NCBI GenBank assembly: GCA_963827235.1
Contig: CAWHAE010000012.1
Location: 1,408,001 to 1,472,000, forward strand
DNA: 64,000 nucleotides
Origin: an uncultured bacterium
GTDB taxonomy: Bacteria > Chloroflexota > UBA5177 > JANWHV01
Direction: 5' to 3'
Shown: positions 9,264 through 49,476 of the stretch, piece by piece
Layout: every line of letters starts with the position of its first letter
How positions within the stretch are numbered: position 1 is the stretch's first letter
Translations under genes and position numbers: made by a program
Notes under the pieces: generated by a model
Databases searched by the model: none
Told to the model about the DNA's origin: nothing
The model's input: only the letters and a program-made list of their open reading frames with translations

Positions 9264-9329
9264 GGCAGGATCCTCTTGCTAGGGCATAGCGCCGGCTGAT
9301 GCGCTCCCGCCGGTGCTTGCGCGGTCGAC

Positions 9330-30302: not shown

Positions 30303-30368
30303 TTAGGGGCTGATGTGGGTGCGTGTTGTGTGTTTTGGGTGGTGCCGGAACCCGGTGCGGCGCAGACT
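30303..30368 (+). promoter_or_regulatory. putative activator-dependent promoter (phased G/T-rich boxes; TTTTGGGTGG-N19-GCAGACT)
   Basis: The same motif with the same spacing occurs at 41483-41518, upstream of the paralogous gene. Confidence 0.5.
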
Positions 30369-30444
30369 TAAGAGCAGGAGGACAGGCTCACACACGGGCG
30401 TATCGGACAACCTCCTCGAATGACAACTGGAGAAGTAGAAAACG

Positions 30445-31902
30445 ATGAGCAAGCTCATGGGTCCAGCCAAACTGCTCGCCTCGGCCACGGCATCCATGCT
30501 CATGCTGGCCATGGTCCATCCCGCGTTTGCCGACAGGTCGATAGCTCCGTCAGGTGCCCCGGTAGGGCGCGGCCCGCTGGTCACGCCTACCCCTCCCGTC
30601 GCGGCGCTGCAGGCAAACCGTGGGCCGGGCCCCGGCATGCTCGCCCGAAGCGTTCTGCCCCATCCCGCCAGGCCGCGGCCCGCGGCCTTCGTCAAACCAA
30701 TCGGCACGCCACCACCGGCAGCGGTTCCGCATGGCGGGTATGTCGACGCTCCTGGTGAGTACGACCTGCAGCCATCCGCGTCGGCGGTAACCGTGAAATG
30801 GTATGACCGCTCCGACAACGAGCTGGGATTCAAGGTGTTCCGCCGCGACACGTCCGGCAACTGGCAGTTGGTCTACCAGGTCGCGACCCGCAATACGCCC
30901 GGCAGCGGGACCGGCAGCGAGCAAGGAGGGACCGACTACACCTGGGTGGATACCAGCACCAGCATAAGCGGCCAGTGCTACAGGATCGCCGCGTACAACG
31001 CCACGGCTATCAGCTACACCGGCGAGGAGTGCACGGTACGCCCGGACCCCAGCCGGTTTCCGCAGTATGTCGGCGGCGCCGCGCCGCAGTGGAGCGGATT
31101 GAGCGACACGAACGGCGGCACCGGTAATCTCGTGAACACGAACCTCGAGCAGCACCTGAAGTACGGCAACCAGACCTGGGGTGTCAACCTGATCTGGGCC
31201 GACAGCTCGTTGTGGAGGGTCGAGGCGCAGGGCGGGCCGCATCTGATGAAAGGGCAGGCCGTGGCGATCAAAGTCTGGGGCGGCGGCTGGCTGAAGTACG
31301 GCACTCAGACCTTTGGTGTGGACCTGCAACTGTCGTCCACGCCGGTGTACGAGTGGTACGCCATCGGCATGCGGGGTGACGCCAGCGAAGAATCATGGGC
31401 CGGCCACGACCTTACGGACGCCGGGACGTTCGCGCTGTGGAACAGCAGCGCGCAGGCGTACCTCGTTCATGGCTACGAGACCTGGGGCATCAGCCTCAAG
31501 TGGTACAGGGTGGGCGGCGGGTCAACGGCGTCGCCGACCCCAACCTCTACGCAGCACGGCGTGAAGACCGAGCGGGTGTTGAACTGTTCGGTCGACCAGC
31601 AACCGGTTGAGGTGTGGATCGCCGATCAGACGGCCGGTGGCGGGTTCATCGACAAGGGCCGAGTCGACCAGCAGTACGGGTCGGACGGCTGCCCTACCGC
31701 CGGCAGCGTGCCGCTCACCTTCAGCCCGCTCTCCGGTCATCACTATCTGCTGGTCGCCACCGACAGTGCGTTGCCCGGCTGTGACGGCAGTAACGACCCG
31801 CAGCAGGGCGAGTGCCAGAAGATGACCGTGCAGTTCGACGGTGACGCGAACGGCTACACGCGGACCGACACCGTCGACATCGGCACCGTGATCACACCGT
31901 GA
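30445..31902 (+). CDS. secreted multidomain protein (FN3-like domain, threefold-repeat beta domain, Cys-containing C-terminal domain), paralog A
   Basis: Signal peptide (MVHPAFA), Pro-rich linker, VTVKWYDRSDNELGFKVFR...YRIAAYN (FN3-like), repeats LKYGNQTWGVNL / LKYGTQTFGVDL / LVHGYETWGISL. Confidence 0.8.
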   Translation: MSKLMGPAKLLASATASMLMLAMVHPAFADRSIAPSGAPVGRGPLVTPTPPVAALQANRGPGPGMLARSVLPHPARPRPAAFVKPIGTPPPAAVPHGGYVDAPGEYDLQPSASAVTVKWYDRSDNELGFKVFRRDTSGNWQLVYQVATRNTPGSGTGSEQGGTDYTWVDTSTSISGQCYRIAAYNATAISYTGEECTVRPDPSRFPQYVGGAAPQWSGLSDTNGGTGNLVNTNLEQHLKYGNQTWGVNLIWADSSLWRVEAQGGPHLMKGQAVAIKVWGGGWLKYGTQTFGVDLQLSSTPVYEWYAIGMRGDASEESWAGHDLTDAGTFALWNSSAQAYLVHGYETWGISLKWYRVGGGSTASPTPTSTQHGVKTERVLNCSVDQQPVEVWIADQTAGGGFIDKGRVDQQYGSDGCPTAGSVPLTFSPLSGHHYLLVATDSALPGCDGSNDPQQGECQKMTVQFDGDANGYTRTDTVDIGTVITP

Positions 31903-31956
31903 GCCAGCACGGCTCTGTCAGTCCGTTCGTGGGCGAACAGTCCTGATCATCGCCCT

Positions 31957-31991
31957 GCCAGGCCATGCCGGCCATGGCGGCATGGCCTGGC
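31957..31991. terminator. 14-bp perfect hairpin, probable terminator
   Basis: GCCAGGCCATGCCG / CGGCATGGCCTGGC with a 7-nt loop, between convergent genes and followed by a T-rich stretch. Confidence 0.6.
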
Positions 31992-32176
31992 GACGTGTTG
32001 TTTCGCGTGTCCTGCACGCGAAACCCGCCATATGTCGCCGTGCGTCCGCGATCCACAGCAGGGTAGGCAGCGTCTAGCATGCGACCGCCGGATTCTGTTC
32101 AGCTCGACCAACGCGTAGGCCATCGCCTCCATAGTTGCTTAGCAGGGTACCGCCCATTTCACCGGCTGTTGTGTCG

Positions 32177-32587
32177 CTATTCTCCCAACCACAGGGACGC
32201 GGGAATCGGAGATCTCTGCAGTGCCTGAATAGCAGTTGCCATGACGCGCTTCCCCTCCGGATTCCGTGGATCAACCAGCACCGTCGTCTCCCTGGTGAGA
32301 ATGCCAACGCTGGTGATCAAAGCGGCACGATCGGCGCGCGTGACGAGGTCCCACACCAGGCTCGTACCCACATCGAGAGCTATCTCATGGGGTATGCGCA
32401 GGACGAAGGAGTACGAATATTCCGCTTTCCCCAGCCTGCCGCCCCGTGGTTCCCGTCCCATGTAGGAGAGCTGCGCACCGTGTGCCAACTCAATCTCCCT
32501 GCCGCGCGGCACCCGCTCCTGCCCCATAACGAGCCCGATAACGGACACTTCCTGCGTCGTGATCTGGAACTCAATATCCACTCTCAC
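32177..32587 (-). CDS. hypothetical protein (~135 aa)
   Basis: Normal protein-like composition; GAGGTGA precedes the alternative start GTG 32581; downstream of and co-oriented with STAND regulator 1. Confidence 0.6.
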   Translation of the reverse strand: MRVDIEFQITTQEVSVIGLVMGQERVPRGREIELAHGAQLSYMGREPRGGRLGKAEYSYSFVLRIPHEIALDVGTSLVWDLVTRADRAALITSVGILTRETTVLVDPRNPEGKRVMATAIQALQRSPIPASLWLGE

Positions 32588-32836
32588 CTCTCTCTGTCCG
32601 AGTCAGCCCGCAAGCAAGGTGAACCGCCGACAAGGTTTGCGTCCTGGACACGCTTGTCGGAATGCGCGAAGACCGCGTTGCTTGACCGGGGTTGGTGCGA
32701 GTACTCGCCTATCGTTTGGGCGGGCGTGGTGTGCTCGATGTCGCGACGCTTTCTTGCTTGGTTGCGGAGCGTGGCCGGCATTTGCCGCAACCTCGCGGGG
32801 TGTGCCGGCGGTCAGGGAGTTACCGGGCACCCGGAT

Positions 32837-35776
32837 TCACGGCATGTCGGTCATACCAGGCGGCTCAGGTGCGCCCAAGCGCAGGAAGATCGCCCGCGCC
32901 GTCGCTCTCGCCTCGATCGCCTCGGCTTGGGAAGATGTGGTCCCGCAGCGGAGCACGTGCTCAGCCAGGCGCCACCGCGCGAGCGCTTCCTGATAGGGCC
33001 ACCCCATTTCGTGCCAGTGCTCAGCCGCTTCCTTGCTGTGCGCGGCCGCCAGATTATACCGGCGCTCATGGGCTGCCATCAGCCCGCGCGCATCGGCGAG
33101 ATAGGCGGACATCGCGGGTGTTGACACGCGGCCGGCGATCGACGCGAGATCCTCCAGGAGCTCGTGCGCGCGGTCGTCTCGACCCACGTGCAGGTAGACC
33201 TCGATCCCGGACCACATCGCCTGGTCATAGAAGAGCACCACCCCTCTACTTTGCCAGCGTTGGAGACAACGGTCCATCGCTGCGACAGCCCCGCCCAGGT
33301 CTCCGCTGGCCAGGCGCACGAGCGCCAGACTCCGCAGGCAGGTGCCCAGACTTTCACAGTCGTCCCACTTCTCGCACGCGGGTAAAAGCCCCTCCAGCAT
33401 CTGGGCAGCAGCGTCAAGCCGACCCTGCCGCCGCAAGAGCTCGCCCGTACGCAGCAAGCACCACACGTGCTGGACGTTGTCGGCCGCTTCGGACCGCTGC
33501 AAAGCCTGCTCGAGCAGATCTCGTGCTTCGTCCCAGTGTCCAAGTTCCAACTCTACCCCACCAAGATTGGCCAGCAGGTAGTCGGTGCGGGTTTCCCACT
33601 TCGTTCGCTCGGCGACGGACAGGCCGGCCCGCAAGGTGTCGCGCGCTCGGCGGCAATCACCTATGCCCAAGAATGCGAATCCCAGCGTCTGATGGGCGTG
33701 AACCAACTCGGCCACCTGGCCGGCGCCTTCAGCGAGCGTGAGGCTGCGCTCAAGGTGTTCCAGGCCACGTTCCGTTTCACCCATATCGACCAGCACGGCA
33801 CCAATGTTAATCAGTGCGCTAGCAGTGATACCCGCGTCGCCCAGTTCCGTGGCCAGGTCGAGCGCCTTCTGGCCCCAGGCAATGCTCTCCGGACACCGCA
33901 GAGTGACACTGTAAACCTGCGAGAGTGTGCTGTACGTCAGGGCCAGTTCACGGCTTGGCGGTCCACTCTCAAGGATGGTGAGCGCACTTTGCAGATGATC
34001 GAGGGCAGCCGCGAACTCACCGCGGCGCCGACAAGCTACCGCCAGGCGCCAGGAGAGGTTGCCGCCCTTCCGCCGGTCACCCGTCAGTTCGTAGACTCGC
34101 TGCGCCTCCTGCCAGTATCGCAACTGCAGGTTGGTATCACCCAGCGGGTCTACCGCTTCGCCGAGCTTGCCGAGCAGGTCCGAGCGTGCATTGAGGTCGT
34201 CGACGTCCAGCAGTGCGAGCGCCGCCTCATAGTGCGCCACAGCGTCCCGATAAGCCGACATGCGAGCCGCGCGATCGCCCGCCAATTGCGTGTAGCGCAG
34301 TGCCTTCGGCACATCGCCCGCCTGCCGGCTATGATATGCCAGCAGATCGACATTGGTCTCGGGATTGCGAGCGTCCGACTCCAAAGCTCGTACCACTCGA
34401 CGGTGTAGGGCCATTCGCCGGGCGGACCCAGCGTCGGCTTCGACAACTTCACGAATCACGTCGTGGACGAAGTAGTAGAGTTGCCCAGCCTCGACCAAGA
34501 TCCGCGCCCTGCAGGCGCCGTCGAGAACCGCAAGCACCTCTTGTTCCGATTGCTCGGCCACTGCGATGAGAAGAGATGGCGAGACCGCGCGGCCGATCAC
34601 CGCGGCCGCGCCCAGCACTTCCCCCGTGCCCTCGGCCAGGCTCGCGATACGCTGCCGAAGCGACTGCGCCAGGTCCCAGGGCACTACAACACCTCTGTCG
34701 GACACCATGGGGCTTTCACGTAGTCCCTGGGCACAACTGATCACGAAGAACGGCACCCCTCCGGCGCGGCGCAGCGCGCGTTCGCGCAACTCCGCCTCCG
34801 ATTCGGGTCCCTCGGTGAGAAATTGATCTGCCAGTAGCACCACTTCTGAAGGCGTTAGCGGTACGAGCGTGTGCTGAGTTGCTAACCGCGCATGTGCCAG
34901 ATCGGCGAGTGTGATCGACAGCGAATCCTGCGCTGCCACTTCGGTGTCACGGTAGGCGCCGACCACACGCAGCGGTGCCTCAGCCGTGCGCATCAGTGCA
35001 GCAAGCAAATCGAGGGCATCAGCCCCAGCCCATTGCAAATCATCCAGAATCAACAGCGTGCCCGCCGGCCCCGCCACGTTCTGCAGGAAGTGGCCCACAG
35101 CCTTGAAGAGCAGGCGGCGCTCTTGGTCCGGCGAGAGCGTCCAATCCGGTAACGACTCAATCGGTCCGACGGCCAGTTCCGGCAACAGGCGGACCAACCA
35201 CGCGCAGCCCTGCAAAACCGTGCGCAGCCGCGCCGGCGGCACGGCGCGCAGAGAAGCCTCCAGCGCCTCGAGCACGGGAGCGTAGGGCTCCTGGCCACCG
35301 CGGCGCCGGCAACCACCCTGCAGGACCCCCCAACCCAGCCGTGCGGCCTGCTGCTGAGCTTCTTGCAAGACGCGCGACTTGCCGATGCCAGGCTCACCCG
35401 CGAACAGCAGAACTGGCGGTCCCTCGCCGCGCAGGTGCCGTGCAAGCAGGGCCAACTCTTTAGCCCGTCCCACCATCCGCGGCTGCGCGATACCTGCCGG
35501 TGGAGTTACTACGGCAGACGGTTCGCCCGCGGGCCCGAGCAGGCCGCGCGCGGCGCCCTCGAATGCGCCTCGCTCAGCGGCTTGGAGACCCAGCGCATCC
35601 GCCAGCAGGACGACCGTCCCGCGCTGCGGCAGCCGGCGCACGCCCCGCTCCAAATTGCTGATGCCGCGCACGCTCAGGTGCGCCCGCTCCGCCAGCTCCT
35701 CTTGCGTCAGGCCCGCCGCCCGGCGATAGCGCTGCAGCAGGTCCGCGAAGCCGGCAGGCTGCGCCCGTATGCCCAT
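32837..35776 (-). CDS. XRE-HTH + STAND (AAA_16-type) ATPase + TPR transcriptional regulator, paralog 1
   Basis: FADLLQRYRRAAGLTQEELAERAHLSVRGISNLERG; Walker A GEPGIGKS; Walker B LILDDLQW; GGVPFF; long helical-repeat C-terminus. Confidence 0.9.
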   Translation of the reverse strand: MGIRAQPAGFADLLQRYRRAAGLTQEELAERAHLSVRGISNLERGVRRLPQRGTVVLLADALGLQAAERGAFEGAARGLLGPAGEPSAVVTPPAGIAQPRMVGRAKELALLARHLRGEGPPVLLFAGEPGIGKSRVLQEAQQQAARLGWGVLQGGCRRRGGQEPYAPVLEALEASLRAVPPARLRTVLQGCAWLVRLLPELAVGPIESLPDWTLSPDQERRLLFKAVGHFLQNVAGPAGTLLILDDLQWAGADALDLLAALMRTAEAPLRVVGAYRDTEVAAQDSLSITLADLAHARLATQHTLVPLTPSEVVLLADQFLTEGPESEAELRERALRRAGGVPFFVISCAQGLRESPMVSDRGVVVPWDLAQSLRQRIASLAEGTGEVLGAAAVIGRAVSPSLLIAVAEQSEQEVLAVLDGACRARILVEAGQLYYFVHDVIREVVEADAGSARRMALHRRVVRALESDARNPETNVDLLAYHSRQAGDVPKALRYTQLAGDRAARMSAYRDAVAHYEAALALLDVDDLNARSDLLGKLGEAVDPLGDTNLQLRYWQEAQRVYELTGDRRKGGNLSWRLAVACRRRGEFAAALDHLQSALTILESGPPSRELALTYSTLSQVYSVTLRCPESIAWGQKALDLATELGDAGITASALINIGAVLVDMGETERGLEHLERSLTLAEGAGQVAELVHAHQTLGFAFLGIGDCRRARDTLRAGLSVAERTKWETRTDYLLANLGGVELELGHWDEARDLLEQALQRSEAADNVQHVWCLLRTGELLRRQGRLDAAAQMLEGLLPACEKWDDCESLGTCLRSLALVRLASGDLGGAVAAMDRCLQRWQSRGVVLFYDQAMWSGIEVYLHVGRDDRAHELLEDLASIAGRVSTPAMSAYLADARGLMAAHERRYNLAAAHSKEAAEHWHEMGWPYQEALARWRLAEHVLRCGTTSSQAEAIEARATARAIFLRLGAPEPPGMTDMP

Positions 35777-35978
35777 ACCTCGTCTCCCGCCCAGACTCTT
35801 CGCGGGCGCTCCGGCACTCGTACCGATCCTCTGGTCTCCTGCTGCCCAGTCTAGCAGTTGGACCGCTACTGAGCCGAGCAGCCCGGTTGGGTGGGTACGT
35901 GGGTTGGTGGTTGGGTGGGTTGTGCATGGTTTGCCACCCGCTCAACGCGCATAGTGTCTTCATGACGAGGCCGGATGC
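35586..35978. repeat. ~393-bp near-identical direct repeat, copy 1 (HTH coding region plus divergent promoter)
   Basis: Matches 41051-41444 with only scattered substitutions and one C-run length difference. Confidence 0.95.
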
Positions 35979-36015
35979 ACGGAGCCTTGCGGCAAGCGGA
36001 CAGGAGAACAGGACG

Positions 36016-36459
36016 ATGATGCGGAATGACGGCGGCTACCACGCAGGGTTCGAAACGGTACGTGCGATGCAGCGGCAGCTGCGAGATGAGCGAGCGCAGG
36101 AGCGGGGCGCGAGAAAAGCCAGGGCAGGCACCACATTCCCTGGCTGGATCGCGCTGATGCTGCGGAAGTCGATATGTGCCCTTCCCCTCCTCATCTCGAA
36201 AGTGCTTTCGCGTGGCCGCCTTTCGGGTCGGTGGCTCGCCGTGCCGGATACCACGCGCAGCGGGCCTGGGCGGCTGCGGCACCGCGTGAGATCGCCTGGA
36301 CAGATGAGGCCACGGCTGAAGCCCGCGGGCTCGGTACCTGTCGACCATGTCAGATCCCGCCGTGGCTGCACTTTAGCGCGGAGCGTCACGGGGATGGGTC
36401 GGGCTGAGCAGTCCACAGTTGCCGCCACACAGCGCGGAAAGTCGATTGGAGGACGAGCA
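36016..36459 (+). other. possible small protein gene starting MMRNDGGY; 3' end unresolved
   Basis: AGGAG RBS before ATG 36016; helical N-terminus RAMQRQLRDERAQERGARKA; the frame stays open into the next gene. Confidence 0.3.
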
Positions 36460-36731
36460 ATGCCACGGTACATGGTCGAACGACATTTTCCTCAGGGTCT
36501 GCAGATCGCGGTGAACGAGGCGGAGCGGCTGCCTGTCTTGCAGTGGTGCAGAACAACGCGGACCTCGGCGTAACCTGGATCCAGTCGTACGTGAGCGAGG
36601 ATAGGGCGAAGACGTTCTGCATCTACGACGGTCCTACGCCGGAAGCCATCCAGCGGGCAGCGGAGCGCAGCGGCCTGCCGGTCGAGTGCATCACGAGGGT
36701 GAACGTGCTGGACCCTTACTTCTACAAATGA
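36460..36731 (+). pseudogene. DUF4242 (SCO4226-like putative nickel-binding) protein with a one-base frameshift near 36523
   Basis: MPRYMVERHFPQGL in one frame joins AAACLAVVQNNADLGVTWIQSYVSEDRAKTFCIYDGPTPEAIQRAAERSGLP in another; RBS GGAGG. Confidence 0.8.
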
Positions 36732-36899
36732 GGCTGACCACACGAGTCGAGCACGCCTCGCTAGAGCCGGCAGGCTGCTCCCACCTGACCGCTGCAACAT
36801 AGTGAGGGCACACCGGATAGAGGCTGCCAGCGCAATCCCATATCCGTCACGACAATAAGCAGCCGCCATCTGTGCGGCATGAAGGAAAGAGGAAGCACA

Positions 36900-38067
36900 A
36901 TGGACTTGCAGACAACCTCGCCGGATCCTGCCAGCAAGATCTCTGCCCCGCGCCGCCGGCTATTGGCTGGCGGTGACCGCGCTCATACTGGCGCCTGCCG
37001 CCCGCCCTGCCGAGGCGACGTCGCTTCAACAGGCCGGCACGACGCTGTCCACGAACGCCACCGTCTTCGCCACCGGCCTGAACAATCCCCGCGGCCTCAC
37101 CTTTGGCCCGGACGGGGATCTGTATGTGGCCGAGGCCGGCACGGGCGGCTCGCGCTCCACCGTCGGCATGTGCCAGCAGGCGCCCGACCCTGCCGGCCCA
37201 TACTCGGGTGGCATGACCGCCCGTATCTCCAAGATCAGTCCGACGGGCGTCCGCACCACTTTCGCGGACCACCTCCCCTCCGACCAGATGAGTCCCGCGA
37301 ACGGCAAGCTGGTGAGCGGGGTGGCCGCGGTCACCTTCATGGGCAGCACCCTGTATGCACTGCTCTCCGGCGCCGGTTGCTCACACGGTCTGGCCGGCAC
37401 GGCCAACGGCGTCATCCGCGTGAAGGCCGACGGTTCCTGGACGAACCTCGCCGACCTGAGCCAGTTCCTGGCGATCCATCCAGTCGCCAACCCGGACGAC
37501 GACGCCGAGCCCGACGGCACCTGGTATGGCCTGGTCGGCATGGGCGGCGCCCTGTATGCCACCGAGCCCAACCACCAGCAAATCTTGCGTATCACCCCGG
37601 CCGGCACTGCGAGCCGGGTGGTCGACTTCTCGGCCATCTACCCCGGCCTGCTGAACTGGCACGGGCCGACCGCACTCGCCGCGCAGGGTGGCAAGCTCTA
37701 CGTGGGCTTCCTCACCTCCTTCCCGACCGTAGTCGGCGCATCGAACATCTCCCAGGTCAGCCTGGATGGCAAGGTCCGGGTGGTGGCGGCGGGCTTGACC
37801 GCCGTGCTGGGCGTGGCCTTCCACGCGGGCCTGCTCTACGCGCTGGAGATGACCACGGTCCCCGGTCTTCCCGGCCCGACGTGGACGGGACGGGGCCAGG
37901 TGGTGCGGGTAACGGCCTCAGGCTCGCTAGTAACGGTGGCCAGCGGCCTGACGCTGCCGACGGCCATGGCCTTTGGGCCGGACGGCGCGCTCTACGTCTC
38001 CAACCTCGGCTTCGGGACACCGCCGGGAGCGGGAGAGATCGTGCGGGTCACTCTTCCGGCCATGTAG
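36900..38067 (+). CDS. secreted ScyD/ScyE-family beta-propeller protein; apparent frameshift near 36962 in the signal peptide
   Basis: FATGLNNPRGLTFGPDGDLYVAEAGTGG, VAAGLTAVLGVAF, LYALE, GLTLPTAMAFGPDGALYVSNLG; the ATG at 36900 has an RBS but is out of frame with the main ORF (36973-38067). Confidence 0.78.
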
Positions 38068-38307
38068 AGAACACGGCAGTCAAGACGAATCGGAGCCTGG
38101 CGGCTGAGTGCAATGCCTCAAGCTGCCAGGCCCGGCCCGTTGCCGATCACCGCGATCATCGACAGCGCCTCTCGACGGCGCTCTCCAACCCGGGGCTGGG
38201 ATACGCAACCGGTCCTGCCTGCGCGGCATCGCTCGCACACATGGGGCGAAACGGCACAGTACCTCTTCCGGCTTATGACAGTCTCCCCCTGGCGCGCATG
38301 CTACCAA

Positions 38308-41241
38308 TTACACCGCATCGATCAGGCGTGAGGTTTCGGATAGGCCAAGGCGCCGGAAGATCGTCCGCGCTGTATCCCGCTCCTTGTTTGCCTCCTCGTG
38401 CGAGGCCGCGTCGCTCGCATGAAGGAGGCTCTCAGCCCGGCGTTTGCGCGCCCACGCCTCCTGGTGGGGACATGACATGGTCAGCCAGAGATCGGCCGCG
38501 CGCTGGAAATGCGCGGCTGCCTCTTCATAGCAGCGCTCATGCCCGGCGAGCAGCCCCCGCACAGTCGCGAATCGGGCCCGGGCTAGCACGTTATCGGCGC
38601 GCTGAGCGAGCACCGATAGGCCCTCCAGCAGCTCGCAAGCACTTTGAACCTTTCCCGCGTGGAGGTACACGACAACGCCGTATTCCAGTGCCAACTCCCA
38701 TCCGACCAGGGGCCCACTTGTGCGATAGAGCTCGACGCAACGATCCGTGACCTGCACCGCACGATCGGTATCCTCCAGCTCAAGATAAACGAGTGCCAGG
38801 GTGCTCAAAGTATCGCGCAGGGTGACGACGTCGTCTTCCCGTTCGGCGATGGCTTGCACCTCTTCCAGCATCGATCGGGCTTCTCCGAGCGAGCCGCCGG
38901 TCCGCAACAGTAGCTCACCATGCACCGGACCAGCCAGGAGACGCGCTCTTGGGAAGGCCGTCTCCTCGGCGCGCAGCTCCCGAATAAGAGAGAGTGCCTC
39001 AGTCCAGCGACCAAGCTCCATCTCCGCGTCGGCGAGGTTTGCCAGCAGTTTGGCACGGTGAGACTCCCATCCTGCCCGCTCAACCCATGCCAGCCCTTCT
39101 CGCAATACCTCCGTGGCGCGTACGTTCATACCCAGGCTGCCGAGCGGCCCGGCAAGATTGTTGCACGCGCGCATGATGTCGTGCACCAGACCGCCCTGCA
39201 GCGCAAGTGCCAGACTCTGTTCCAGATACGCGATGCCGCGCTGCAGTTCTCCAAGGTAGAACCATGAAGAACCAACATTATTCAACGCATGCGCTCTGAC
39301 GGCATCATCGCCCAGTACATCGGCCAGCGCGAGCGCCTTCTCACCCCATTCAATGCTCTCCCGTGGCTGATTGGTCAGCATCAGGAGTTGGGACAGCGCA
39401 CTGTACGCCATGGCCAGCTCATGGCTTGGCGGGCCGTCTATCAGTCCGGTAACGGCGGCTCGCGTGTGGGCCAGGGCAGTGCTGATCTCCCCGCGTTCCC
39501 AGGCCACACGGCCCAAACGCCGGGAGAGGTCCGCCGCCCTGTGCTGCTCGCCGATCTGCTCGTAGAGCCGGTGCGCTTCCTGCCAGTGACGCAGGTAGAC
39601 AGCGGTATCACCCAGCGGATATGCCGCCTCGCCCAACTTCGCACGTAGCGCTGCCCGCGTTCGCACGTCGTCGCCGGCGAGCAGCTCGAGCGCCGCCTCA
39701 TAGTGGGTTATGGCTTCGCGATAGGCGGCCATGCGCATTGCGCGATCGCCGGCCTGCTGAGAGTAATGGGCAGCTTTGCCGGTCTGACCGGCCTGTCTGC
39801 TGTGATAGGCCAGGAGATCCACGTGTGGCTCCAGACCGTTCTCCGCTTGCACTTCCAGCGCGGCAAGCACACGCCGGTGCAGGGCGGTACGGCGTGATAC
39901 GCCAAGGCCGGCTTCGACGAACTCTCGGATCACGTCGTGTACGAACGCGTAGCCCTGTTCCTGCTCCACGAGCAACCGCGCCTGGCAGGCAGTATCGAGC
40001 GCCGCGAGCACCTCGTCTTCAGGCTGCGTGGCCACAGCAAACAGGACGGTGCGCGGCATGCTGCGGCCAATCACCGCGGCGATGGCGAGCAACTCGCGGG
40101 CGCTTTCAGGCAAGACGGCAATGCGCTGCCCCAACCCTTGAGCGAGCGTCCACGGAATGGCGTGCACCGGGTCACCAGAAGCACGCAGGCCCTGGGCGCA
40201 ACTGACGACGAAGAACGGCACGCCCCCGGCACGCTGTATCAGTTGGTCCCGTAGCGCAGGATCGGCCGCCTTGCTCTCTTCGCGCAGCCCCTCGAGCAAT
40301 GCACCGACCTCGCTCGCGGTGAGCGGCGCCACGGCGTGCTGCATAGCGAGCCCCGCCTGCGCCAGGTCGGCAAGAAACACGGCGAGCGGATCGCGTGCCG
40401 ACACCTCGGTGTCGCGGTACGCACCCACCACCCGCAGCGGCTCCTCCGCTCGTACCAGCGTTGCCAGCAGGTCGAGCGCATCCCCTCCCGCCCATTGCAG
40501 GTCATCCAGGATCAGCAGCGTGCCTGCCGGGCCTGCCATGTTCTGCAGACAGCGGGCCACCGCCTTGAAGAGGAGGCGGCGCTCCTGATCGGGCGAGACA
40601 TTCCAGGCGGGCAGCGGCTCAATGGGACCGGCAGCCAATTCTGGGAGCAGGCGCACCAACCAGGCGCAGTCTTGCAGTGCCGCACGCAACCGGGGTTGCG
40701 AGAGGGCGTGCAAGGACCGCTCCAGCGCCTCCAGCACGGGCGCGTAGGGCTCCTGGCCGCCGCGGCGCCGGCACCCGCCGTGCAAGACCCGCCAGCCGTG
40801 CGCGACCGCCAGCGCCGCGGCTTCCTGCAACAGCCGCGACTTGCCGATGCCGGGCTCCCCCGTGAACAGCAGCACAGGAGGTCCTTCGGCATCCGCGTGC
40901 CGTTCCAGCAGTGCGAGCTCCGCAGCTCTGCCCACCAATGGGGGGATCGTGGTGCGTGACGACGGCGCCGTGCTTTCCCCCGGATCGCGGACGGGCGCTG
41001 TCATCGAGCTGCGCGAAGCGGCCTCAAATGCTTCGCGCTCAGCTCCCTGCAGACCCAGAGCATCCGCCAGCAGAACGACCGTCCCGCGCTGCGGAAAGCG
41101 GCGCACGCCCCGCTCCAAATTGCTGATGCCGCGCACGCTCAGGTGCGCCCGCTCCGCCAGCTCCTCTTGCGTCAGGCCCGCCGCCCGGCGATAGCGCTGC
41201 AGCAGGTCCGCGAAGCCGGCAGGCTGCGCCCGTATGCCCAT
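38308..41241 (-). CDS. XRE-HTH + STAND ATPase + TPR transcriptional regulator, paralog 2
   Basis: Same N-terminus MGIRAQPAGFADLLQRYRR as paralog 1; GEPGIGKS, LILDDLQW, GGVPFF; TPR-like C-terminus diverged. Confidence 0.9.
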   Translation of the reverse strand: MGIRAQPAGFADLLQRYRRAAGLTQEELAERAHLSVRGISNLERGVRRFPQRGTVVLLADALGLQGAEREAFEAASRSSMTAPVRDPGESTAPSSRTTIPPLVGRAAELALLERHADAEGPPVLLFTGEPGIGKSRLLQEAAALAVAHGWRVLHGGCRRRGGQEPYAPVLEALERSLHALSQPRLRAALQDCAWLVRLLPELAAGPIEPLPAWNVSPDQERRLLFKAVARCLQNMAGPAGTLLILDDLQWAGGDALDLLATLVRAEEPLRVVGAYRDTEVSARDPLAVFLADLAQAGLAMQHAVAPLTASEVGALLEGLREESKAADPALRDQLIQRAGGVPFFVVSCAQGLRASGDPVHAIPWTLAQGLGQRIAVLPESARELLAIAAVIGRSMPRTVLFAVATQPEDEVLAALDTACQARLLVEQEQGYAFVHDVIREFVEAGLGVSRRTALHRRVLAALEVQAENGLEPHVDLLAYHSRQAGQTGKAAHYSQQAGDRAMRMAAYREAITHYEAALELLAGDDVRTRAALRAKLGEAAYPLGDTAVYLRHWQEAHRLYEQIGEQHRAADLSRRLGRVAWERGEISTALAHTRAAVTGLIDGPPSHELAMAYSALSQLLMLTNQPRESIEWGEKALALADVLGDDAVRAHALNNVGSSWFYLGELQRGIAYLEQSLALALQGGLVHDIMRACNNLAGPLGSLGMNVRATEVLREGLAWVERAGWESHRAKLLANLADAEMELGRWTEALSLIRELRAEETAFPRARLLAGPVHGELLLRTGGSLGEARSMLEEVQAIAEREDDVVTLRDTLSTLALVYLELEDTDRAVQVTDRCVELYRTSGPLVGWELALEYGVVVYLHAGKVQSACELLEGLSVLAQRADNVLARARFATVRGLLAGHERCYEEAAAHFQRAADLWLTMSCPHQEAWARKRRAESLLHASDAASHEEANKERDTARTIFRRLGLSETSRLIDAV

Positions 41242-41444
41242 CCCTCGTCTCCCGCCCCAGACTCTTCGCGGGCGCTCCGGCACTCGTACCGATCCTCTGG
41301 TCTCCTGCTGCCCAGTCTAGCAGTTGGACCGCTACTGGGCCGAGCAGCACGGTTGGGTGGGTACGTGGGTTGGTGGTTGGGTGGGTTGTGCATGGTTTGC
41401 CACCCGCTCACCGCGCACAGTGTCTGCGTGACGAGGCCGGATGC
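41051..41444. repeat. ~394-bp near-identical direct repeat, copy 2
   Basis: Matches 35586-35978. Confidence 0.95.
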
Positions 41445-41452
41445 GCAGGGCC

Positions 41453-41518
41453 TTGGCGTGCTATTGGGGATCACTTTGTGGCTTTTGGGTGGCGGCCTGA
41501 ACCAGCCCGATGCAGACT
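41453..41518 (+). promoter_or_regulatory. putative activator-dependent promoter (TTTTGGGTGG-N19-GCAGACT)
   Basis: Same motif and spacing as 30333-30368. Confidence 0.5.
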
Positions 41519-41745
41519 GAAAGAAGCGGTAGACGCCGGCCGGCGGCAGACAGCGATCATTCGGCCGAGGCCGCGTTGCACTGAAGCCCATGTGTGTCCG
41601 TCATCGGAGGAGAATCATTCAATGTTGGCTTTTGACGCTGCGTTCGGCCGGCAGTGTCTGCACAGATGACGATCATAGCCTGCCGTGGCGCAGAACCAAC
41701 CCCACGGCTCCCCAGTCGGCGACGAGGTTCGCGGGAGACGGAAAC

Positions 41746-43185
41746 ATGAGACAACGCGTACGCCCATCCACGTTGCTTGCCCCGGTTGTGCTCGCCCTGC
41801 TCACGGTGGCGATGGTTCATCCGGTGTACGCCGAACGGCAGTCAGCACACTCGGGTGTGGTGTCAACTATCGCCGGCACCGGGCCCCTGGCCCCGCCGGC
41901 CGCGGCACAGGCATTTGAGATGCCGAGAACCAACGGCCGCTCGCCCGGGTTGCTGCCCAACCCTGCCGCACCGCCTTCAGAGGCACTGATCAAGCCAATC
42001 ATCGCGCCGTCCCCGATACCCGTGCGACCAGTCGGACCTGTCAACGCTCCCGGTACGTACGTGCTGCAGGCGACCACGTCGTCGGTAAGCGTGAAATGGT
42101 ATGACCGCTCCGACAACGAGCTGGGATTCAGAGTGTTCCGCCGCGACACGTCGGGCAACTGGCAGATGGTCTACCAGGTCGCGAGCCGCGACATGCATGG
42201 CTTTGGAACCGGTACCAACTTCGACTACACCTGGGTGGATACCAGCACCAACATCAGCGGCCAATGCTACAAGATCGCCGCCTACAACATCACAAACGCC
42301 GGCGATACCGCCGAGGAGTGCACCGTGCGCCCGGACCCCAGCCGATTTCCGCAAACGGTCTCCGTCACCGTGCCATCGTGGAGCGGGTTGAGCGACACCA
42401 ATGACGGCACCGGCAGTCTGGTGAACACGGACATCGAGCAGAATCTGAAGTACGGCGAACGAACCTGGGGTGTCAATCTGACCTGGGGGAACAGCTCGCT
42501 CTGGCGGGTCGAGGCGCAGGGCGGGCCGCATCTGATGAAAGGGCAGGCCGTGGCGCTCAAGGTTTGGGGCGGCGGCTGGCTGAAGTACGGCAACCAGACC
42601 TTCGGTGTGGACTTGCAGCTGTCGGCCACACCGGTCTACGAATGGTACGCCATCGGACTGAAGAATGATCCCAGCAAGCGGACATGGGCCGGATCGAGCC
42701 TGACGGACGGTGGGTCGTTCGCACTCTGGAACAGCTCAGCACACCTGTACCTCGTCCCCGGTTACCAGACCTGGGGCATCGGCCTCCAATGGTACGACGG
42801 GGCCTTGACGTCTCCTGCCCCGACACCAGTCCCGACCCACGGCGTGAAGACCGAGCGGGTGTTGAACTGTTCGGTCGACCAGCAACCGGTCGAGGTGTGG
42901 ATCGCCGATCAGACGGCCGGAGGCGGGTTCGTCGACAAGGGCCGAGTCGACGAGCAGTACGGGTCGGACGGCTGCCCTACCGCCGGCAGCGTGCCGCTCA
43001 CTTTCAGCCCGCTGTCCGGTCATCACTATCTGCTGGTCGCCACCGACAGTGCGTTGCCCGGCTGTGACGGCAGTAACGACCCGCAGCAGGGCGAGTGCCA
43101 GAAGATGACCGTGCAGTTCGACGGTGACGCGAACGGCTTCACGCGCACCGACATCGTCGACGACGGCACCGTGATCACACCGTGA
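41746..43185 (+). CDS. secreted multidomain protein, paralog B of 30445-31902
   Basis: Signal peptide (MVHPVYA); same FN3-like, threefold-repeat and C-terminal domains; GGGAG before ATG 41746. Confidence 0.82.
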   Translation: MRQRVRPSTLLAPVVLALLTVAMVHPVYAERQSAHSGVVSTIAGTGPLAPPAAAQAFEMPRTNGRSPGLLPNPAAPPSEALIKPIIAPSPIPVRPVGPVNAPGTYVLQATTSSVSVKWYDRSDNELGFRVFRRDTSGNWQMVYQVASRDMHGFGTGTNFDYTWVDTSTNISGQCYKIAAYNITNAGDTAEECTVRPDPSRFPQTVSVTVPSWSGLSDTNDGTGSLVNTDIEQNLKYGERTWGVNLTWGNSSLWRVEAQGGPHLMKGQAVALKVWGGGWLKYGNQTFGVDLQLSATPVYEWYAIGLKNDPSKRTWAGSSLTDGGSFALWNSSAHLYLVPGYQTWGIGLQWYDGALTSPAPTPVPTHGVKTERVLNCSVDQQPVEVWIADQTAGGGFVDKGRVDEQYGSDGCPTAGSVPLTFSPLSGHHYLLVATDSALPGCDGSNDPQQGECQKMTVQFDGDANGFTRTDIVDDGTVITP

Positions 43186-43387
43186 GCCACGGTGAAGCCA
43201 GGGTGGAACCTGCAGACGCAGTGCGAGAGGTAATAGGCCAGGATGGATTGGTGCGCGCGCCGGTGAGTGCTGTGATCGCGGTGATGCCGGCGTGAAGCGT
43301 ATCTACTGCGCAGTGGAAAGATCTAGCGAACGGCAAGGCTCATTTATCGTGGCCGGCGGCGACCGGCGGCTGGGGAGGCTATGCACC

Positions 43388-44524
43388 ATGATTCTGCTAC
43401 GACCGGTTTATTCGATGGGCGTCCGAGCAATGCTGGTCGTGTTAACGCTGACGGTGACTGGTCTTGAGCAGTCTCATGCCGTCATGCGGGCACTGAGCGC
43501 GCCGCTCGGCACGTCGTCGGCGATCAGTGCTACTGCGCCCCTCTCATCGCGGACCGTCTATGTGGGCTCAGAGGACGGCAATCTCTATGCCCTCGATGCC
43601 CAAACTGGACGCCCTCGGTGGCACTTCGCGACTGGAGGTGCCGTTGACTCCTCCCCGACCGTAGCAGCTGGAGTGGTGTACGTCGGTTCGAACGACCACA
43701 ATGCCTACGCCATCGATGCCCGCACCGGCCGCGAGCTCTGGCACTTCAAGACGGGATTCACTATCAAGGCGTCCCCGATTGTGGCGGCTGGGATCGTGTA
43801 TGTGGGCTCGTATGATCAATATCTCTACGCGCTGGATGCCCGGACCGGTCATCTGCGTTGGCGCTTCTCAACCCATAGCATGACCAACACACCCGCCGTA
43901 GCCACCGGAGTGGTTTATGTCGGCTCCCTTAGCATCCTTAACCCAGGTGGCAGCTTTTATGCCCTGGATGCCCAGACCGGTCACCCCCGCTGGCATGTCG
44001 ACACGGACGATATCCTGGACTCTTCTCCCAAGTTGGCGGCCGGCGTAGTCTACGTTGGCTCGTCGTCCGGCCATTTCCTCTACGCTCTAGATAGCCGGAC
44101 CGGGCGTGTGCTCTGGCGCTTCCAGGCGGGGGAAGCGATGGAGTCTTCACCCACAGTGGCGGCCGGGGTGGTTTATGTCGGGTCGGACGACGGCAACGTC
44201 TACGCTGTCGACGCACTGACGGGCCATCAGCGCTGGCGCTTCCGGACAGGGGACTTGGTCGAGTCAGCACCCGCGGTGACGGCCGGGGTGGTCTACGTCG
44301 GCTCGGAGAATGGTTATCTCTACGCCCTCGACGGCCGCACCGGCCGCCAGCGCTGGCGCCTTGAGACGGGCGGCGACATAGTCTCTTCGCCCGCGGTGGC
44401 GGCCGGGATGGTCTACCTTGGCTCGGACGACTCGCGGGTCTACGCCGTAGACGCACAGACCGGTCGTCAGCGCTGGCACTTCCTTACAGGAGACCACGTG
44501 GTGTCATCACCAGCCATCGGCTGA
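43388..44524 (+). CDS. secreted PQQ-like/BamB-type eight-bladed beta-propeller protein
   Basis: Eight ~40-aa repeats VYVGSxDxxLYALDAxTGxxRWxFxTGxxVxSSPxVAAG; N-terminal hydrophobic signal; GGGAGG before ATG 43388. Confidence 0.9.
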   Translation: MILLRPVYSMGVRAMLVVLTLTVTGLEQSHAVMRALSAPLGTSSAISATAPLSSRTVYVGSEDGNLYALDAQTGRPRWHFATGGAVDSSPTVAAGVVYVGSNDHNAYAIDARTGRELWHFKTGFTIKASPIVAAGIVYVGSYDQYLYALDARTGHLRWRFSTHSMTNTPAVATGVVYVGSLSILNPGGSFYALDAQTGHPRWHVDTDDILDSSPKLAAGVVYVGSSSGHFLYALDSRTGRVLWRFQAGEAMESSPTVAAGVVYVGSDDGNVYAVDALTGHQRWRFRTGDLVESAPAVTAGVVYVGSENGYLYALDGRTGRQRWRLETGGDIVSSPAVAAGMVYLGSDDSRVYAVDAQTGRQRWHFLTGDHVVSSPAIG

Positions 44525-44593
44525 CACACGAGACAGAACGTGACACCACGCACATGGGTGAACAGCCCATACATGTATTCAAGGGATACTTCG

Positions 44594-45040
44594 ATGCATC
44601 TACCACGAATCGGCGCCCTCACACTCGCTCTTGCCTTGGCAAGCGGTAGTGCCGGACTACATGTCCTGGCTGCCCCGACCGAGGCTATCACTACCGACGT
44701 CGACATGTCGTCGTGTGCGACGCAGCCTGCCACCTTCAGCGTGCAGACCGTGCATGGGATCTCAGTCGTCAGTCCGGTGCGGCTGGTGGTGTTCGGGAAC
44801 TGTTTCGAACAGGGAGCCTCGATCACGATCTGGGACTCCCGCAGTGATGTCTCCCTGACCAACGGCTGGCATTTCCTGCCGGCCAATTCCGCCGAGCAAG
44901 TCCGCTACACGGTGCCCAATGCCGTATGTCACCACCTGCTGGAGGTCAGAGTTCTGGATGTCGCACGAAACAGCCTCGCGCTCGGCAACGGGAAGGTCTA
45001 CGGCCCATGCCAGTCGCCACCGCCCGTGCTCAACTTGTGA
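44594..45040 (+). CDS. secreted hypothetical protein
   Basis: Signal-like MHLPRIGALTLALALASG, then a beta-rich domain with 4 Cys. Confidence 0.6.
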   Translation: MHLPRIGALTLALALASGSAGLHVLAAPTEAITTDVDMSSCATQPATFSVQTVHGISVVSPVRLVVFGNCFEQGASITIWDSRSDVSLTNGWHFLPANSAEQVRYTVPNAVCHHLLEVRVLDVARNSLALGNGKVYGPCQSPPPVLNL

Positions 45041-45717: not shown

Positions 45718-46901
45718 ATGCACATCACCTGGGTTCACGCCAGCCTGGTAGTTGCCGTGCTGCTGCTCAACGGGCTCGCCCCGGCGACCGGCCGTGCCCA
45801 GACGCCGCAGCCGGCCGCTGACCTGCGACAGGCGCTGACCATGGCCCCGATCACCGCCAGCACGGTCTCCTTCACGGACTGGGCACTGCTCAAGCAGTAC
45901 GAGGGGGCCAGCGGGCTGACCAGCAAGAGCGGCGCGCAGGACCGCCTGCGCTTCATCTTGTCGCTCACCAAGGACCAGGCCGAGGCCTCGGCCTATGGCT
46001 TGAGCTATTTCGTGGGGCACGCCACAGCCTGGGGCTGGGACTCCACCGACCTGCTCTGGGAGATCAACGTCCAGACCGCCAGTGGGAGCCCGGCCTATGT
46101 GCTCCGGTTCCGCGACGATTTCGACTTCGCCCCGGTGGTCGCGCACTTCATCAAGCGCGGCTTCAGCAGGAACGAGTATCATGGCGTGCCGATCTACTCC
46201 CACAACCTGGATTTCACTGCCAGTTGGGCCACCTCCAGCGACCTGGCCATATTCAATACCGCCGTGCTGGCGACGAAACGGACGCTCGTGCTCTCCGGCT
46301 CGGCGGAGTCCGTGCGCGGTGTCCTCGACGTCATCCGTGGTGCAGCCCCCGCGCTCACCGGGGATCGCTGGACACCGGCCACCATCAGCCGGCTGGACAC
46401 GATGGCCGCGGCCATGATCCTGCCGGGCGCCGGAGCCTGCCCCCGGATCTCGGCGCGGCGCTGCTCGCCAAGGGGTACGAGCATTCGGTGATGGGCGCGC
46501 TGCTGAAGGAGCTCCACCCATACGTGGAGCTTGGCATCGGCTACCGTGACGAGGGTGGCCGCCCGGTGGGGCTGCTGGTTATGCACTACCTGAACGCCAG
46601 GGAGGCGAAGGCGGATCTGGTGCCGCGCCGCTCGCTGGCGCAGAACGGCTTTAGCAGCGTGGACCAAAGGCCATACCGTGATGTGCTCTTCACGGTCGCG
46701 AGCGCCGCGGTGGCGGGCAGCGACCTGGTGCTGCAACTGCACCCGGTTGGCAACAAGCCACAGCATCTCTTTGAGATGGCCGATAACCGAGATATGCTCT
46801 TTGCGGCGTGCCCCCCTACCACGGTACAGGACCGACGACGACCCGCGTGGAGTGAGGGAGGTAGAGCAAACGACGGCTCTACCCCCGGCGGCCCGTGTTA
46901 G
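45718..46901 (+). pseudogene. secreted hypothetical protein with a frameshift in a C5 run at 46440-46444
   Basis: The signal-peptide ORF 45718-46491 turns to nonsense after AGACP; a protein-like continuation PDLGAALLAKGY...DMLFAACP lies in another frame; one extra C restores it. Confidence 0.7.
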
Positions 46902-47061
46902 GGTACTGAAACGTAGTGCAGCCAGGTGCGCCCATCATCACTGCTTCGATAGACTCCCTGCGCGGCCCCCGCGTAGGCGGTGCGACCGTCGGGGGCCGCG
47001 AGCAGCGCCCAGATCTGCGGGTCGTCGTTCCCCGTGCTGCCGGGCACCGGTGCCCAGCTCC
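46895..47061. repeat. ~167-bp direct repeat, left copy (3' end of a BNR-repeat gene)
   Basis: Near-identical to 61922-62087. Confidence 0.95.
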
Positions 47062-47857
47062 CTTCCTGCCTCACCCGGCGGAACGGTTCGTCGCCACCAT
47101 TTTCGGGCGCGCCCGAGATGTGGCGCCATCCCATCGCTCCCACCGCAAGTGCGGCGACATACTCAGACGCGACTGGTAGGTCCAGGATCAATATCGGGTG
47201 GGCCTCGCCGTCATCGCCTGCCAACCGGTGCAACCGGTCACTTTGGCCCTGGATCGGGGCTACCGTTATCTCACGAGGGGAGCGGCTGAGTCCCTCGCCG
47301 AGGGCTTTCATGGCGGCTTCCTTGCGCGTCCATGCCACGAGGAAGGCCGTGAGCCTGTCGCACGACGGAAGGGAGCAATACACACTGTACTCCCGATCTC
47401 CCATCACGGATTGGGCGAGAGGGTCAAGGTCGGGTATTTGGCGTCTGTATTCGACATCTACGCCGAGCGGACACGACCTGGCGACTGCGAGCAGCCCAAG
47501 CTCCCGGGAGTGGGATACGTTGAAGCAGAGCCTGTGCAGATGACGGCCCGCCAGCTCTGGTTTTCCGTGGGGCGAATACCGGAACACTATCTGGCTTGGG
47601 TCGTCGTCGAGATAGGCGCCGAGGATCGCGCGCAGGAGCCCTCTGGCTACGACAAACCGTCTTCTATCCGCCTCGAAGTGAAAGCCGCCGGCGCGTCGGA
47701 GCTCCTCCGGCGACAGCATTGTCTCAAGCCGGCTGATACACGCTGAGGGCTGATCGAGGCGAGCGTGCCAGAGGTGAACCTCGTTCAAGCGCAGGGGCCG
47801 GCGCTGCACGGGGTTATCAGTAAGCCACAATCCGTTCGTCGGAACATGGGGCATCAT
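46898..47857 (-). CDS. Sfp-type 4'-phosphopantetheinyl transferase with a captured BNR-repeat tail
   Basis: EVHLW, LSPEELRRA, RGLLRAILGAYL, HGKPEL, FNVSHS, LGVDVE, WTRKEAAMKALGEGL; the last ~52 aa come from the direct repeat. Confidence 0.9.
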   Translation of the reverse strand: MMPHVPTNGLWLTDNPVQRRPLRLNEVHLWHARLDQPSACISRLETMLSPEELRRAGGFHFEADRRRFVVARGLLRAILGAYLDDDPSQIVFRYSPHGKPELAGRHLHRLCFNVSHSRELGLLAVARSCPLGVDVEYRRQIPDLDPLAQSVMGDREYSVYCSLPSCDRLTAFLVAWTRKEAAMKALGEGLSRSPREITVAPIQGQSDRLHRLAGDDGEAHPILILDLPVASEYVAALAVGAMGWRHISGAPENGGDEPFRRVRQEGSWAPVPGSTGNDDPQIWALLAAPDGRTAYAGAAQGVYRSSDDGRTWLHYVSVP

Positions 47858-47940
47858 GGCCGGCCACACGCTTGAGCCTTGTCCAGGCAAGCCGCCACTT
47901 GTCGCGACGGCACCCTGGAAGTGGGCTCGCTCTTTCGCTC

Positions 47941-49287: not shown

Positions 49288-49476
49288 CGGAGCGAATCTC
49301 CCCAGTATTGCAGAGCACCGCGCGACGCGGGAAGATAGACGCGTGCACGCGCAGCGTATCCCGTCCAGGTGCAGCCTCCACAGCAGCAATATCAGTGCCG
49401 AGATCAACGCACGGGTCTTCACAGCCCCACTCCTTACGCTGACCAAGCCGTCAAACGTGCTTTTCGCCTTCGCTCC

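Follow-up and report, generated by a model that had tools for sequence, protein, structure and literature searches.

The closest described counterparts of the two regulators considered here, which are encoded in a stretch of 64,000 nucleotides (the window) from the genome of an uncultured Chloroflexota bacterium and are referred to as the twins, are found among STAND ATPases and XRE-type activators. MalT of Escherichia coli resembles the twins in joining a STAND module to a sensor of the tetratricopeptide repeat (TPR) type; with its inducer it forms multimers that occupy several boxes in a cooperative manner and bring in RNA polymerase (PMC4381067). AfsR of Streptomyces coelicolor shares with the twins the order of an N-terminal DNA-binding effector, a nucleotide-binding oligomerization domain (NOD), then TPRs, and binds 11-bp direct repeats in tandem, the promoter having a poor -35 element and a -10 element beginning with C (CACTGT) (PMC10936776). 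PH0952 of Pyrococcus horikoshii (PDB 6MFV) is a predicted transcription factor consisting of an N-terminal helix-turn-helix (HTH), a NOD, an arm and a TPR sensor (PMC6468293). The XRE activators MmyB and MltR, the latter from Chloroflexus, combine an XRE head with a C-terminal ligand sensor (PMC3406030).

The twins are probably MalT/AfsR-like activators that work on three 12-bp repeats and drive a weak partner promoter, their heads having been matched by recent conversion. They possess an N-terminal XRE HTH, 12-bp repeat boxes and dozens of paralogues that have separate boxes, in contrast to MalT, whose DNA-binding domain is of the C-terminal LuxR type. GutR of Bacillus subtilis, an activator of HTH-NTPase-TPR build whose gene is divergent to the target, gutB, is a single-copy sugar-alcohol regulator. 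AfsR is a SARP (OmpR-type plus BTAD) with two repeats at -40 to -19 that overlap the -35 element, whereas the twins have an XRE head and three 12-bp repeats upstream of -35. PH0952 differs by its ArsR-like head and archaeal origin (PMC6468293), and the identity is 14%. MmyB and MltR are described with a PAS-like sensor, without an ATPase, and as dimers on (pseudo-)palindromes (PMC3406030). The architecture of the twins is already catalogued and would work as STAND activators are known to do; searches of the open-access literature gave no account of the operator grammar, of how it covaries with the head, or of the rewiring caught at this locus. No report on the operators, targets or mode of action of XRE-STAND-TPR proteins was found in the open-access literature, and the available portion of PMC7159879 does not describe this system.

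Domain architecture and fold

A domain scan detects HTH_31/HTH_3 (above the cut-off, residues 10-72), AAA_16 and TPR in both regulators, which confirms the coordinates (Table 1) and domains of the two XRE-HTH/STAND/TPR genes reported in the initial annotation. The STAND motifs are intact in both, namely Walker A (GEPGIGKS, 127/128), Walker B (LLILDDLQWA, 241/242), the sensor-1 arginine (VVGAYR, 271), the GxP motif (GGVPFF, 339) and the histidine of the winged-helix domain (WHD; FVHDVIR, 436/433). The scan finds neither GerE, the C-terminal LuxR-type HTH that marks MalT and LAL proteins, nor BTAD in either regulator, and neither gene is among the 17 BTAD sites of the genome. TPR_MalT reaches 51.5 bits in regulator 1 and 41.7 bits in regulator 2 (cut-off 45), and the NCBIfam AfsR score of 38.8 against a cut-off of 1430 does not support membership in AfsR or the large SARPs. 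The features of RRNPP peptide receptors, an HTH-TPR protein lacking an ATPase and a small propeptide gene beside it, are likewise not observed, as the STAND module is intact and no propeptide gene is recognised beside either regulator.

The top structural match of the regulator model (pLDDT 91.7) is PH0952 (6MFV; E 8e-13), and Avs3 (second) and Apaf-1 are also matched; the global TM-scores are low (0.29), the domain arrangement being unmatched. The match to Avs3 and the large, diverse paralogue family would agree with anti-phage NLR-like sensors of the Avs/bNACHT type, in which the XRE head is a defence effector. This explanation is very improbable, since the domain scan of the twins yields HTH, AAA_16 and TPR only, with no nuclease, sirtuin, TIR or similar toxic effector, PADLOC returns only weak TPR/HTH matches at the locus, and the partner genes code for secreted or metabolic proteins and come with a promoter grammar of their own. 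The nearest named homologues of the regulators belong to Chloroflexota, and the XRE-STAND-TPR architecture is very common (1594 matches at E<=1e-40 among 8000 candidates, with automatically given names). The twin bodies are sisters among 13 AAA_16-type bodies (support 99/98).

The shared tract and its probable origin by gene conversion

The DNA identity of the twins is 0.98-1.0 from about -157 to +111, 0.57-0.83 in the linker and nucleotide-binding domain (NBD; to +918), and 0.34-0.69 beyond. This non-uniform profile, falling outward from the head, reproduces the near-identical HTH and upstream DNA, drifted ATPases and very different TPRs noted earlier. The tract that had been proposed for an identity search is exact in its coordinates and present in exactly two copies in the 8.0-Mb genome; 381 of 394 columns (96.7%) are the same, with 13 differences and sharp ends. 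At four-fold synonymous sites the head differs at 4/43 positions and the body segments at 50/95, 33/58, 35/67 and 39/70 (52-57%). Protein selection cannot explain the matching heads, because these sites match in the head and differ in the bodies. The twins most likely represent an old duplication followed by recent gene conversion of the head and its upstream DNA.

The conversion probably proceeded from regulator 1 into regulator 2, over the first 48 codons and 200 upstream bases, because the orthologues of regulator 2 keep another head. These orthologues, P0125 and P0126, are 90-92% identical to regulator 2 in the NBD and 85% in the TPR region and only 83% in the head, where they carry L21, Q27 and E36 in place of the A, E and V that regulator 2 has in common with regulator 1. 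F49, which lies beyond the core tract, is retained in regulator 2 as in its orthologues. This ancestral residue, the sharply bounded tract with its 13 differences and its position inside a 1.63-Mb contig make an assembly or polishing artefact a highly improbable source of the identical heads, even though the assembly contains indels. P0123, which is nearer regulator 1 up to residue 300 and nearer regulator 2 afterwards, looks like a natural chimera. Since P0122 and P0125 are both listed on one contig of 605,823 bases, the twin pair probably co-occurs elsewhere.

A second conversion tract connects paralogs A and B (Table 1). Its synonymous differences amount to 4/49, compared with 24-28% elsewhere in A and B, and both tracts appear to be of the same age. 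The earlier proposal that the head was copied together with its promoter unit agrees with the synonymous-site, tract and orthologue comparisons. The extension of this proposal, that the system grows in this way, is not supported as the main route: only two copies exist, and whole-gene duplication dominates family growth. Exchange of head and upstream DNA is seen in a few further pairs, two of them (C10:54151/74551 and C10:18499/C12:983203) with unrelated bodies, and a twin-like head is found on another body in genome G001.

We also note another head exchange between C10:74536 of the present genome (G000) and L014 of G001, whose bodies are orthologous (NBD 0.80, TPR 0.75) and whose heads are only 0.59 identical. 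The XRE-TIR-nSTAND1 genes C10:6577 and C12:1209089 of G000 are recent whole-gene duplicates (96.6%), both shortened by stops or frameshifts.

Two sensor lineages

The TPR sensors are 77-85% identical within each orthologue lineage and about 40% between the twins. P0122, an orthologue of regulator 1, has 77% TPR identity to it and 43% to regulator 2. Over sensor residues 601-840, members of lineage 1 share 82-95% identity and those of lineage 2 88-93%, compared with 32-53% between the twins. Two cross-genome orthologue pairs combine NBD identities of 0.79-0.80 with TPR identities of 0.73-0.75, compared with 0.42 for the TPRs of the twins. The suggestion of one shared head with different sensors is upheld by these separately conserved lineages, and the pattern fits two maintained sensor specificities for putative ligands.

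The predicted P1 operator and a class-wide promoter grammar

A profile search of the genome at >65 bits gave 46 XRE-STAND heads, or 44 once two small stand-alone XRE genes were removed, and 20 other genomes of the same class served for comparison. CAGACT is enriched upstream of the heads on the partner-facing strand (20/44 vs 7.8%). The full promoter element reads TGG-N20-CA[GTC]A[CG]T and is preceded by about three direct repeats, with TGG at the position of TTG in a -35 element. This grammar occurs at 16/44 heads and in 20/1816 control regions. It is absent from the SARP genes (0/15; 17 BTAD sites, two without a gene call) and from the five LAL genes of the genome (0/5). A standard sigma-70 scan misses these promoters (1 site vs 1.5 expected).

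Out of sample, 135 heads from 136 loci in the 20 other genomes were picked by their similarity to the twin head. The grammar is carried by 31 of the 135 at spacing 20, by 0-3 at spacings 15-25 and by 0-2 on the opposite strand, and appears in 0.5% of shuffled sequences. The upstream regions of these heads show autocorrelation peaks at lags 12 and 24 (lag 12: 0.38 vs 0.26). The conserved element upstream of XRE heads consists of direct repeats, in a comparison that did not search palindromes systematically. Loci with more similar recognition helices also tend to have more similar arrays (Mantel rho 0.23, p 0.002, n=62 loci, relatedness between loci not removed), compared with -0.01 for helices 1-2 as control. 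Asp-type recognition helices are associated with TG(C/T)GTG in 84/90 units, and the twins and L070 with TGGGTG. The box sequences are predicted to give an operator specificity that tracks the recognition helix. In three additional genomes XRE heads also face DUF4242 genes, the helices and boxes there being of the Asp type. The idea that a multi-box operator travels with this head type is supported, with a three-repeat operator predicted in the tract and a grammar that recurs across the class.

L070, retrieved via its head protein, has the same helix as the twins and retains the array (32/40 bases) but not its surroundings (8/20 spacer and 10/40 flank bases). An array pattern search in the 21 genomes gave eight matches, two of them in this genome, and six in a backwards control. 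The sole exact match outside is in G002, where the correctly spaced promoter lies directly before intact DUF4242 and ScyD/E genes; a two-mismatch match with promoter occurs in G001, and the four others look like chance. P1 appears to be native to the cassette of regulator 1, because G002 has the array before the intact DUF4242-ScyD/E pair. A model of the twin array scores 44 bits at both twin arrays and at most 22.7 elsewhere in the genome. In the reversed-genome control the top values of 32-40 are the arrays themselves, owing to near mirror symmetry, and the next values, up to 22.9, were used. The broad regulon expected at first is not supported, as the twin array is present at two sites only in 8 Mb. 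The array has no notable RNA fold (z -1.35), and Rfam gives no match within the 64-kb window.

Related promoters without an XRE head beside them were observed at C12:642533, C16:62447, C9:285646 and C20:112342 of G000. These have TTGTC(C/A)GGG-like repeats with TGG-N20-CATACT and all precede signal-peptide genes of 430-765 aa, likely a second regulon run in trans. At C17:212836 and C16:1031323 of the same genome, which lie on different contigs, the promoter regions are identical and the gene pairs nearly so, reflecting duplication or bin contamination (9% estimated).

Proposed mechanism of action

On the basis of STAND biology, a ligand at the TPR sensor would open the NOD, allow exchange of ADP for ATP and lead to head-to-tail oligomers. 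The aligned XRE heads would then sit on the TGGGTGG boxes that lie in tandem between about -75 and -40, as footprinting and covariation suggest, and RNA polymerase would be recruited to a promoter having TGG for TTG at -35 and C at -12. If the heads bind in this manner, either twin could fire both P1 promoters, that of the DUF4242-ScyD/E cassette and that of the B-propeller-small protein cassette, because heads and arrays are alike. Oligomers lining up XRE heads head to tail would also account for the use of direct repeats by a family otherwise associated with palindromes.

In the opposite direction, the twins would be repressors or autoregulators only, the heads silencing their own promoter or that of the partner until released by ligand. 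The array also spans about -46 to -81 of the predicted start of the regulator itself, and many XRE proteins are autoregulatory. The array nevertheless stops short of the partner -35 at a fixed distance, and the poor partner promoter (TGG, C at -12) with its strict 20-nt spacing across the class fits what is seen at afsS and other activator-dependent promoters, which leaves repression a decidedly unlikely alternative.

If the activator mechanism holds, a working OR gate over two operons would have roughly even chances, given the frameshifts and possible mixed oligomers. The gate looks like a recent local rewiring of two promoters, because the orthologues of regulator 2 keep their own head. The same orthologues are compatible with a conversion that was a neutral accident of nearby paralogues, with regulator 2 or the frameshifted cassette dead and no working gate. 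Such an outcome, which the frameshifts in two consecutive genes and the equally young A/B tract (96.9%), devoid of regulatory meaning, would also favour, is rather unlikely: neither regulator is truncated or has lost its motifs, the two arrays and the two promoters are preserved, and assembly indels occur (a scan of part of the genome shows apparent splits in about 24 of 1321 genes that have paralogues). An accidental origin and a working gate are moreover compatible.

Several observations weigh against activation by the twins through P1. The usual description of XRE domains is that of dimers bound to palindromes (PMC12565409, PMC3406030). The count of 16/44 is circular, the motif having been derived in the same genome, and 104 of the 135 heads of relatives do not have the strict motif. 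A looser count is less clean for the helix-box rule, D-type heads showing G at the distinguishing box position in 13/56 words, and the Mantel covariation is uncorrected for relatedness. The zero differences between the two twin arrays are not significant given a tract divergence of 3%. The arrays of G002 and G001 have no XRE head within their 1.5-kb flanks and no array lies upstream of the twin-like head in G001, so that trans action must be assumed there. The two frameshifts, called in the assembly relative to the intact orthologous cassette of G002, may mean that the DUF4242-ScyD/E cassette is dead.

Should the activator model be correct, XRE heads would act on direct repeats rather than as dimers on palindromes, and the grammar would predict binding sites and target genes family-wide from sequence. 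P1-type promoters offer reporters for hunting ligands of bacterial NLR-like sensors, and the twins represent a naturally occurring, dated case in which a sensor was rewired to a new operator via gene conversion.

Partner cassettes, paralogs A and B, and the P2 promoter

The gene content of the divergent cassettes is as first described, the term "mostly secreted" needing correction in that the DUF4242 protein has no predicted signal peptide and is not secreted, and two genes are frameshifted. No terminator-like site was found between B and the PQQ-like propeller. B, whose start is corrected to 41746, has two predicted tandem promoters, the P1 copy and P2. DUF4242/SCO4226-like genes are repeatedly first behind this promoter type (L232, L189, L216, L309, L328); a role of DUF4242 as a small STAND feedback partner, as MalY for MalT, may be imagined as an idea only.

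The promoter motif that A had been said to share with the twin locus is real as an A/B upstream motif; it lies outside the shared tract and represents a different operator. P2 sites number six in the genome, at five genes of the A/B family and a DUF346-repeat gene, with three more in G003/G004 and none in the control. In the SxNTIxNLEAG subfamily, each of the three heads identified in the class faces P2. The control of A likely passes through P2 and a different XRE-STAND head, and the ancestral (SERG) head of regulator 2 may be a second candidate P2 regulator.

A single head specificity running A, B and the DUF4242 cassette as one adhesion/lectin regulon would be consistent with such an ancestral role, with the TTG(G/T)G held by both P1 and P2 boxes, with the recognition-helix Asn in all heads facing them, and with the 16 bits of A, the highest score of a non-twin array. 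On the twin model, however, P2 falls within the background of up to about 23 bits (B's P2 0.4), far from the 44 of the twin arrays; its position outside the tract, its six genomic sites and the dedicated subfamily facing it also make this regulon unlikely, and A is probably not a twin target.

The beta-trefoil of A has MIR-type domains as its best structural matches (9e61, Z 10.1, rmsd 2.8, 133 aligned residues; 1t9f, Z 10.1), and the ESM Atlas gives only sub-0.9 FN3 leads for A. The A/B family has at least 127 members, with no Pfam match and no Pfam lectin match; a lectin or adhesion role would be a guess based on the fold. At 30 GTDB loci of A/B homologues an XRE head is present in 1/30 and AAA_16-type genes in three more, and because so few carry such regulators, the A/B-regulator link is not general.

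Beyond the end of the window (C12:1472460-1475802; L064), an XRE-STAND gene of the P2-facing subfamily is split into ORFs of 603 and 523 aa, and is divergent from a DUF346-repeat gene at 62871-64025 of the window.

The wider family and its secreted neighbours

The genome has about 44 such heads, and the 36 bodies scanned comprise AAA_16-TPR, other NTPase-TPR, nSTAND1-WD40 (with TIR in two truncated ones) and TPR-only types. A divergent neighbour lies within 1 kb of 37/44 heads, compared with 54/99 TetR/LysR/MarR control genes. Under a crude home-made rule for signal peptides, and with non-independent paralogues in the count, these neighbours have a signal peptide in 19/37 cases vs 8/54 controls (p 3e-4; genome background 209/1553). 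In the other genomes of the class 103/128 heads are divergent and 40/103 neighbours have a signal peptide. The association with secreted genes at homologous loci, as anticipated, is therefore present, and its exclusiveness is not, since SARP-type STANDs of the genome show a like bias (6/11 face signal-peptide genes). Among 78 metagenome loci (many of GC >=70%), signal peptides occur in 11/42 divergent neighbours, few show the promoter, and ten have no head calls. We also note a pair of XRE heads in back-to-back orientation at L238 (G010:C16), separated by about 1 kb.

A tentative generalisation is a class-wide plug-and-play NLR-like system, in which an XRE head, a 12-bp-repeat operator and a standard weak promoter would form cassettes moved by recombination between STAND bodies with different sensors. 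Taken jointly and just as tentatively, the bodies would be AAA_16-TPR, other NTPase-TPR and TIR-nSTAND1-WD40, the wiring of signal to secreted protein would change, the boxes would be a readable recognition code, and the window would show rewiring just after the making of an OR gate.

Features and neighbouring genes

Table 1. Features of the locus, in window coordinates.
Feature	Position	Strand	Description
A/B-family promoter (P2 type)	30303..30368	+	TTG(G/T)G repeats, TGG 30340, -10-like CAGACT 30363-30368; predicted, not the twin operator
Paralog A	30445..31902	+	485 aa; signal peptide, Pro-rich linker, FN3 (97-202), beta-trefoil (220-357), C-terminal beta domain
A/B tract	31555..31906 / 42838..43189	+	341/352 same (96.9%); second conversion tract
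Terminator-like hairpin after A	31956..31992	+	z -4.5
136-aa ORF	32177..32587	-	No family or paralogue found; lies downstream of regulator 1
Regulator 1	32837..35776	-	979 aa; XRE HTH (10-71), STAND NBD-helical domain (HD)-WHD, arm, TPR sensor; likely head donor
Shared tract copy 1	35586..35978	.	Coding nt 1-143 without differences
Regulator 1 own promoter	35848..35856	-	Extended -10-like TGcTAGACT; predicted
P1	35887..35955	+	Three 12-bp direct repeats 35887-35922 (core TGGGTGG), TGG 35927, -10-like CATAGT 35950-35955; predicted operator and promoter
Spacer	36016..36460	+	Ribosome-binding site and reading frame without homologues; G002 counterpart ~170 nt
SCO4226-like/DUF4242 gene	36461..36731	+	Frameshift near codon 20; 61.9 bits, cut-off 28.5
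ScyD/ScyE-family propeller	36900..38067	+	Frameshift in signal-peptide region; body ORF 36973-38067; 196.5, cut-off 80
Regulator 2	38308..41241	-	977 aa; architecture of regulator 1, with a sensor of the other lineage; head most likely replaced by that of regulator 1
Shared tract copy 2	41051..41444	.	Regulator 2 own -10 at 41322-41314 (-)
P1 copy before B	41353..41421	+	Same repeats 41353-41388, TGG 41393, -10-like CACAGT 41416-41421; predicted
P2 before B	41464..41518	+	Just outside tract; TGG 41490, CAGACT 41513-41518
Paralog B	41746..43185	+	479 aa; signal peptide; domains of A
PQQ-like beta-propeller	43388..44524	+	Signal peptide predicted; candidate starts at 43292, 43388 and 43430
Small protein	44594..45040	+	Signal peptide, no family

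Elsewhere in the window, an apparently split signal-peptide ORF in pieces of 257 and 136 aa lies at 45718-46901. The adjoining cluster at 46898-60216 includes a phosphopantetheinyl transferase (Pfam), a P450-like gene and a 3579-aa polyketide-synthase-like ORF, the last two labelled by sequence recognition. A nitrate reductase-like operon and a nitrate/nitrite transporter-like gene, recognised in the same way, are located at 2628-10496.

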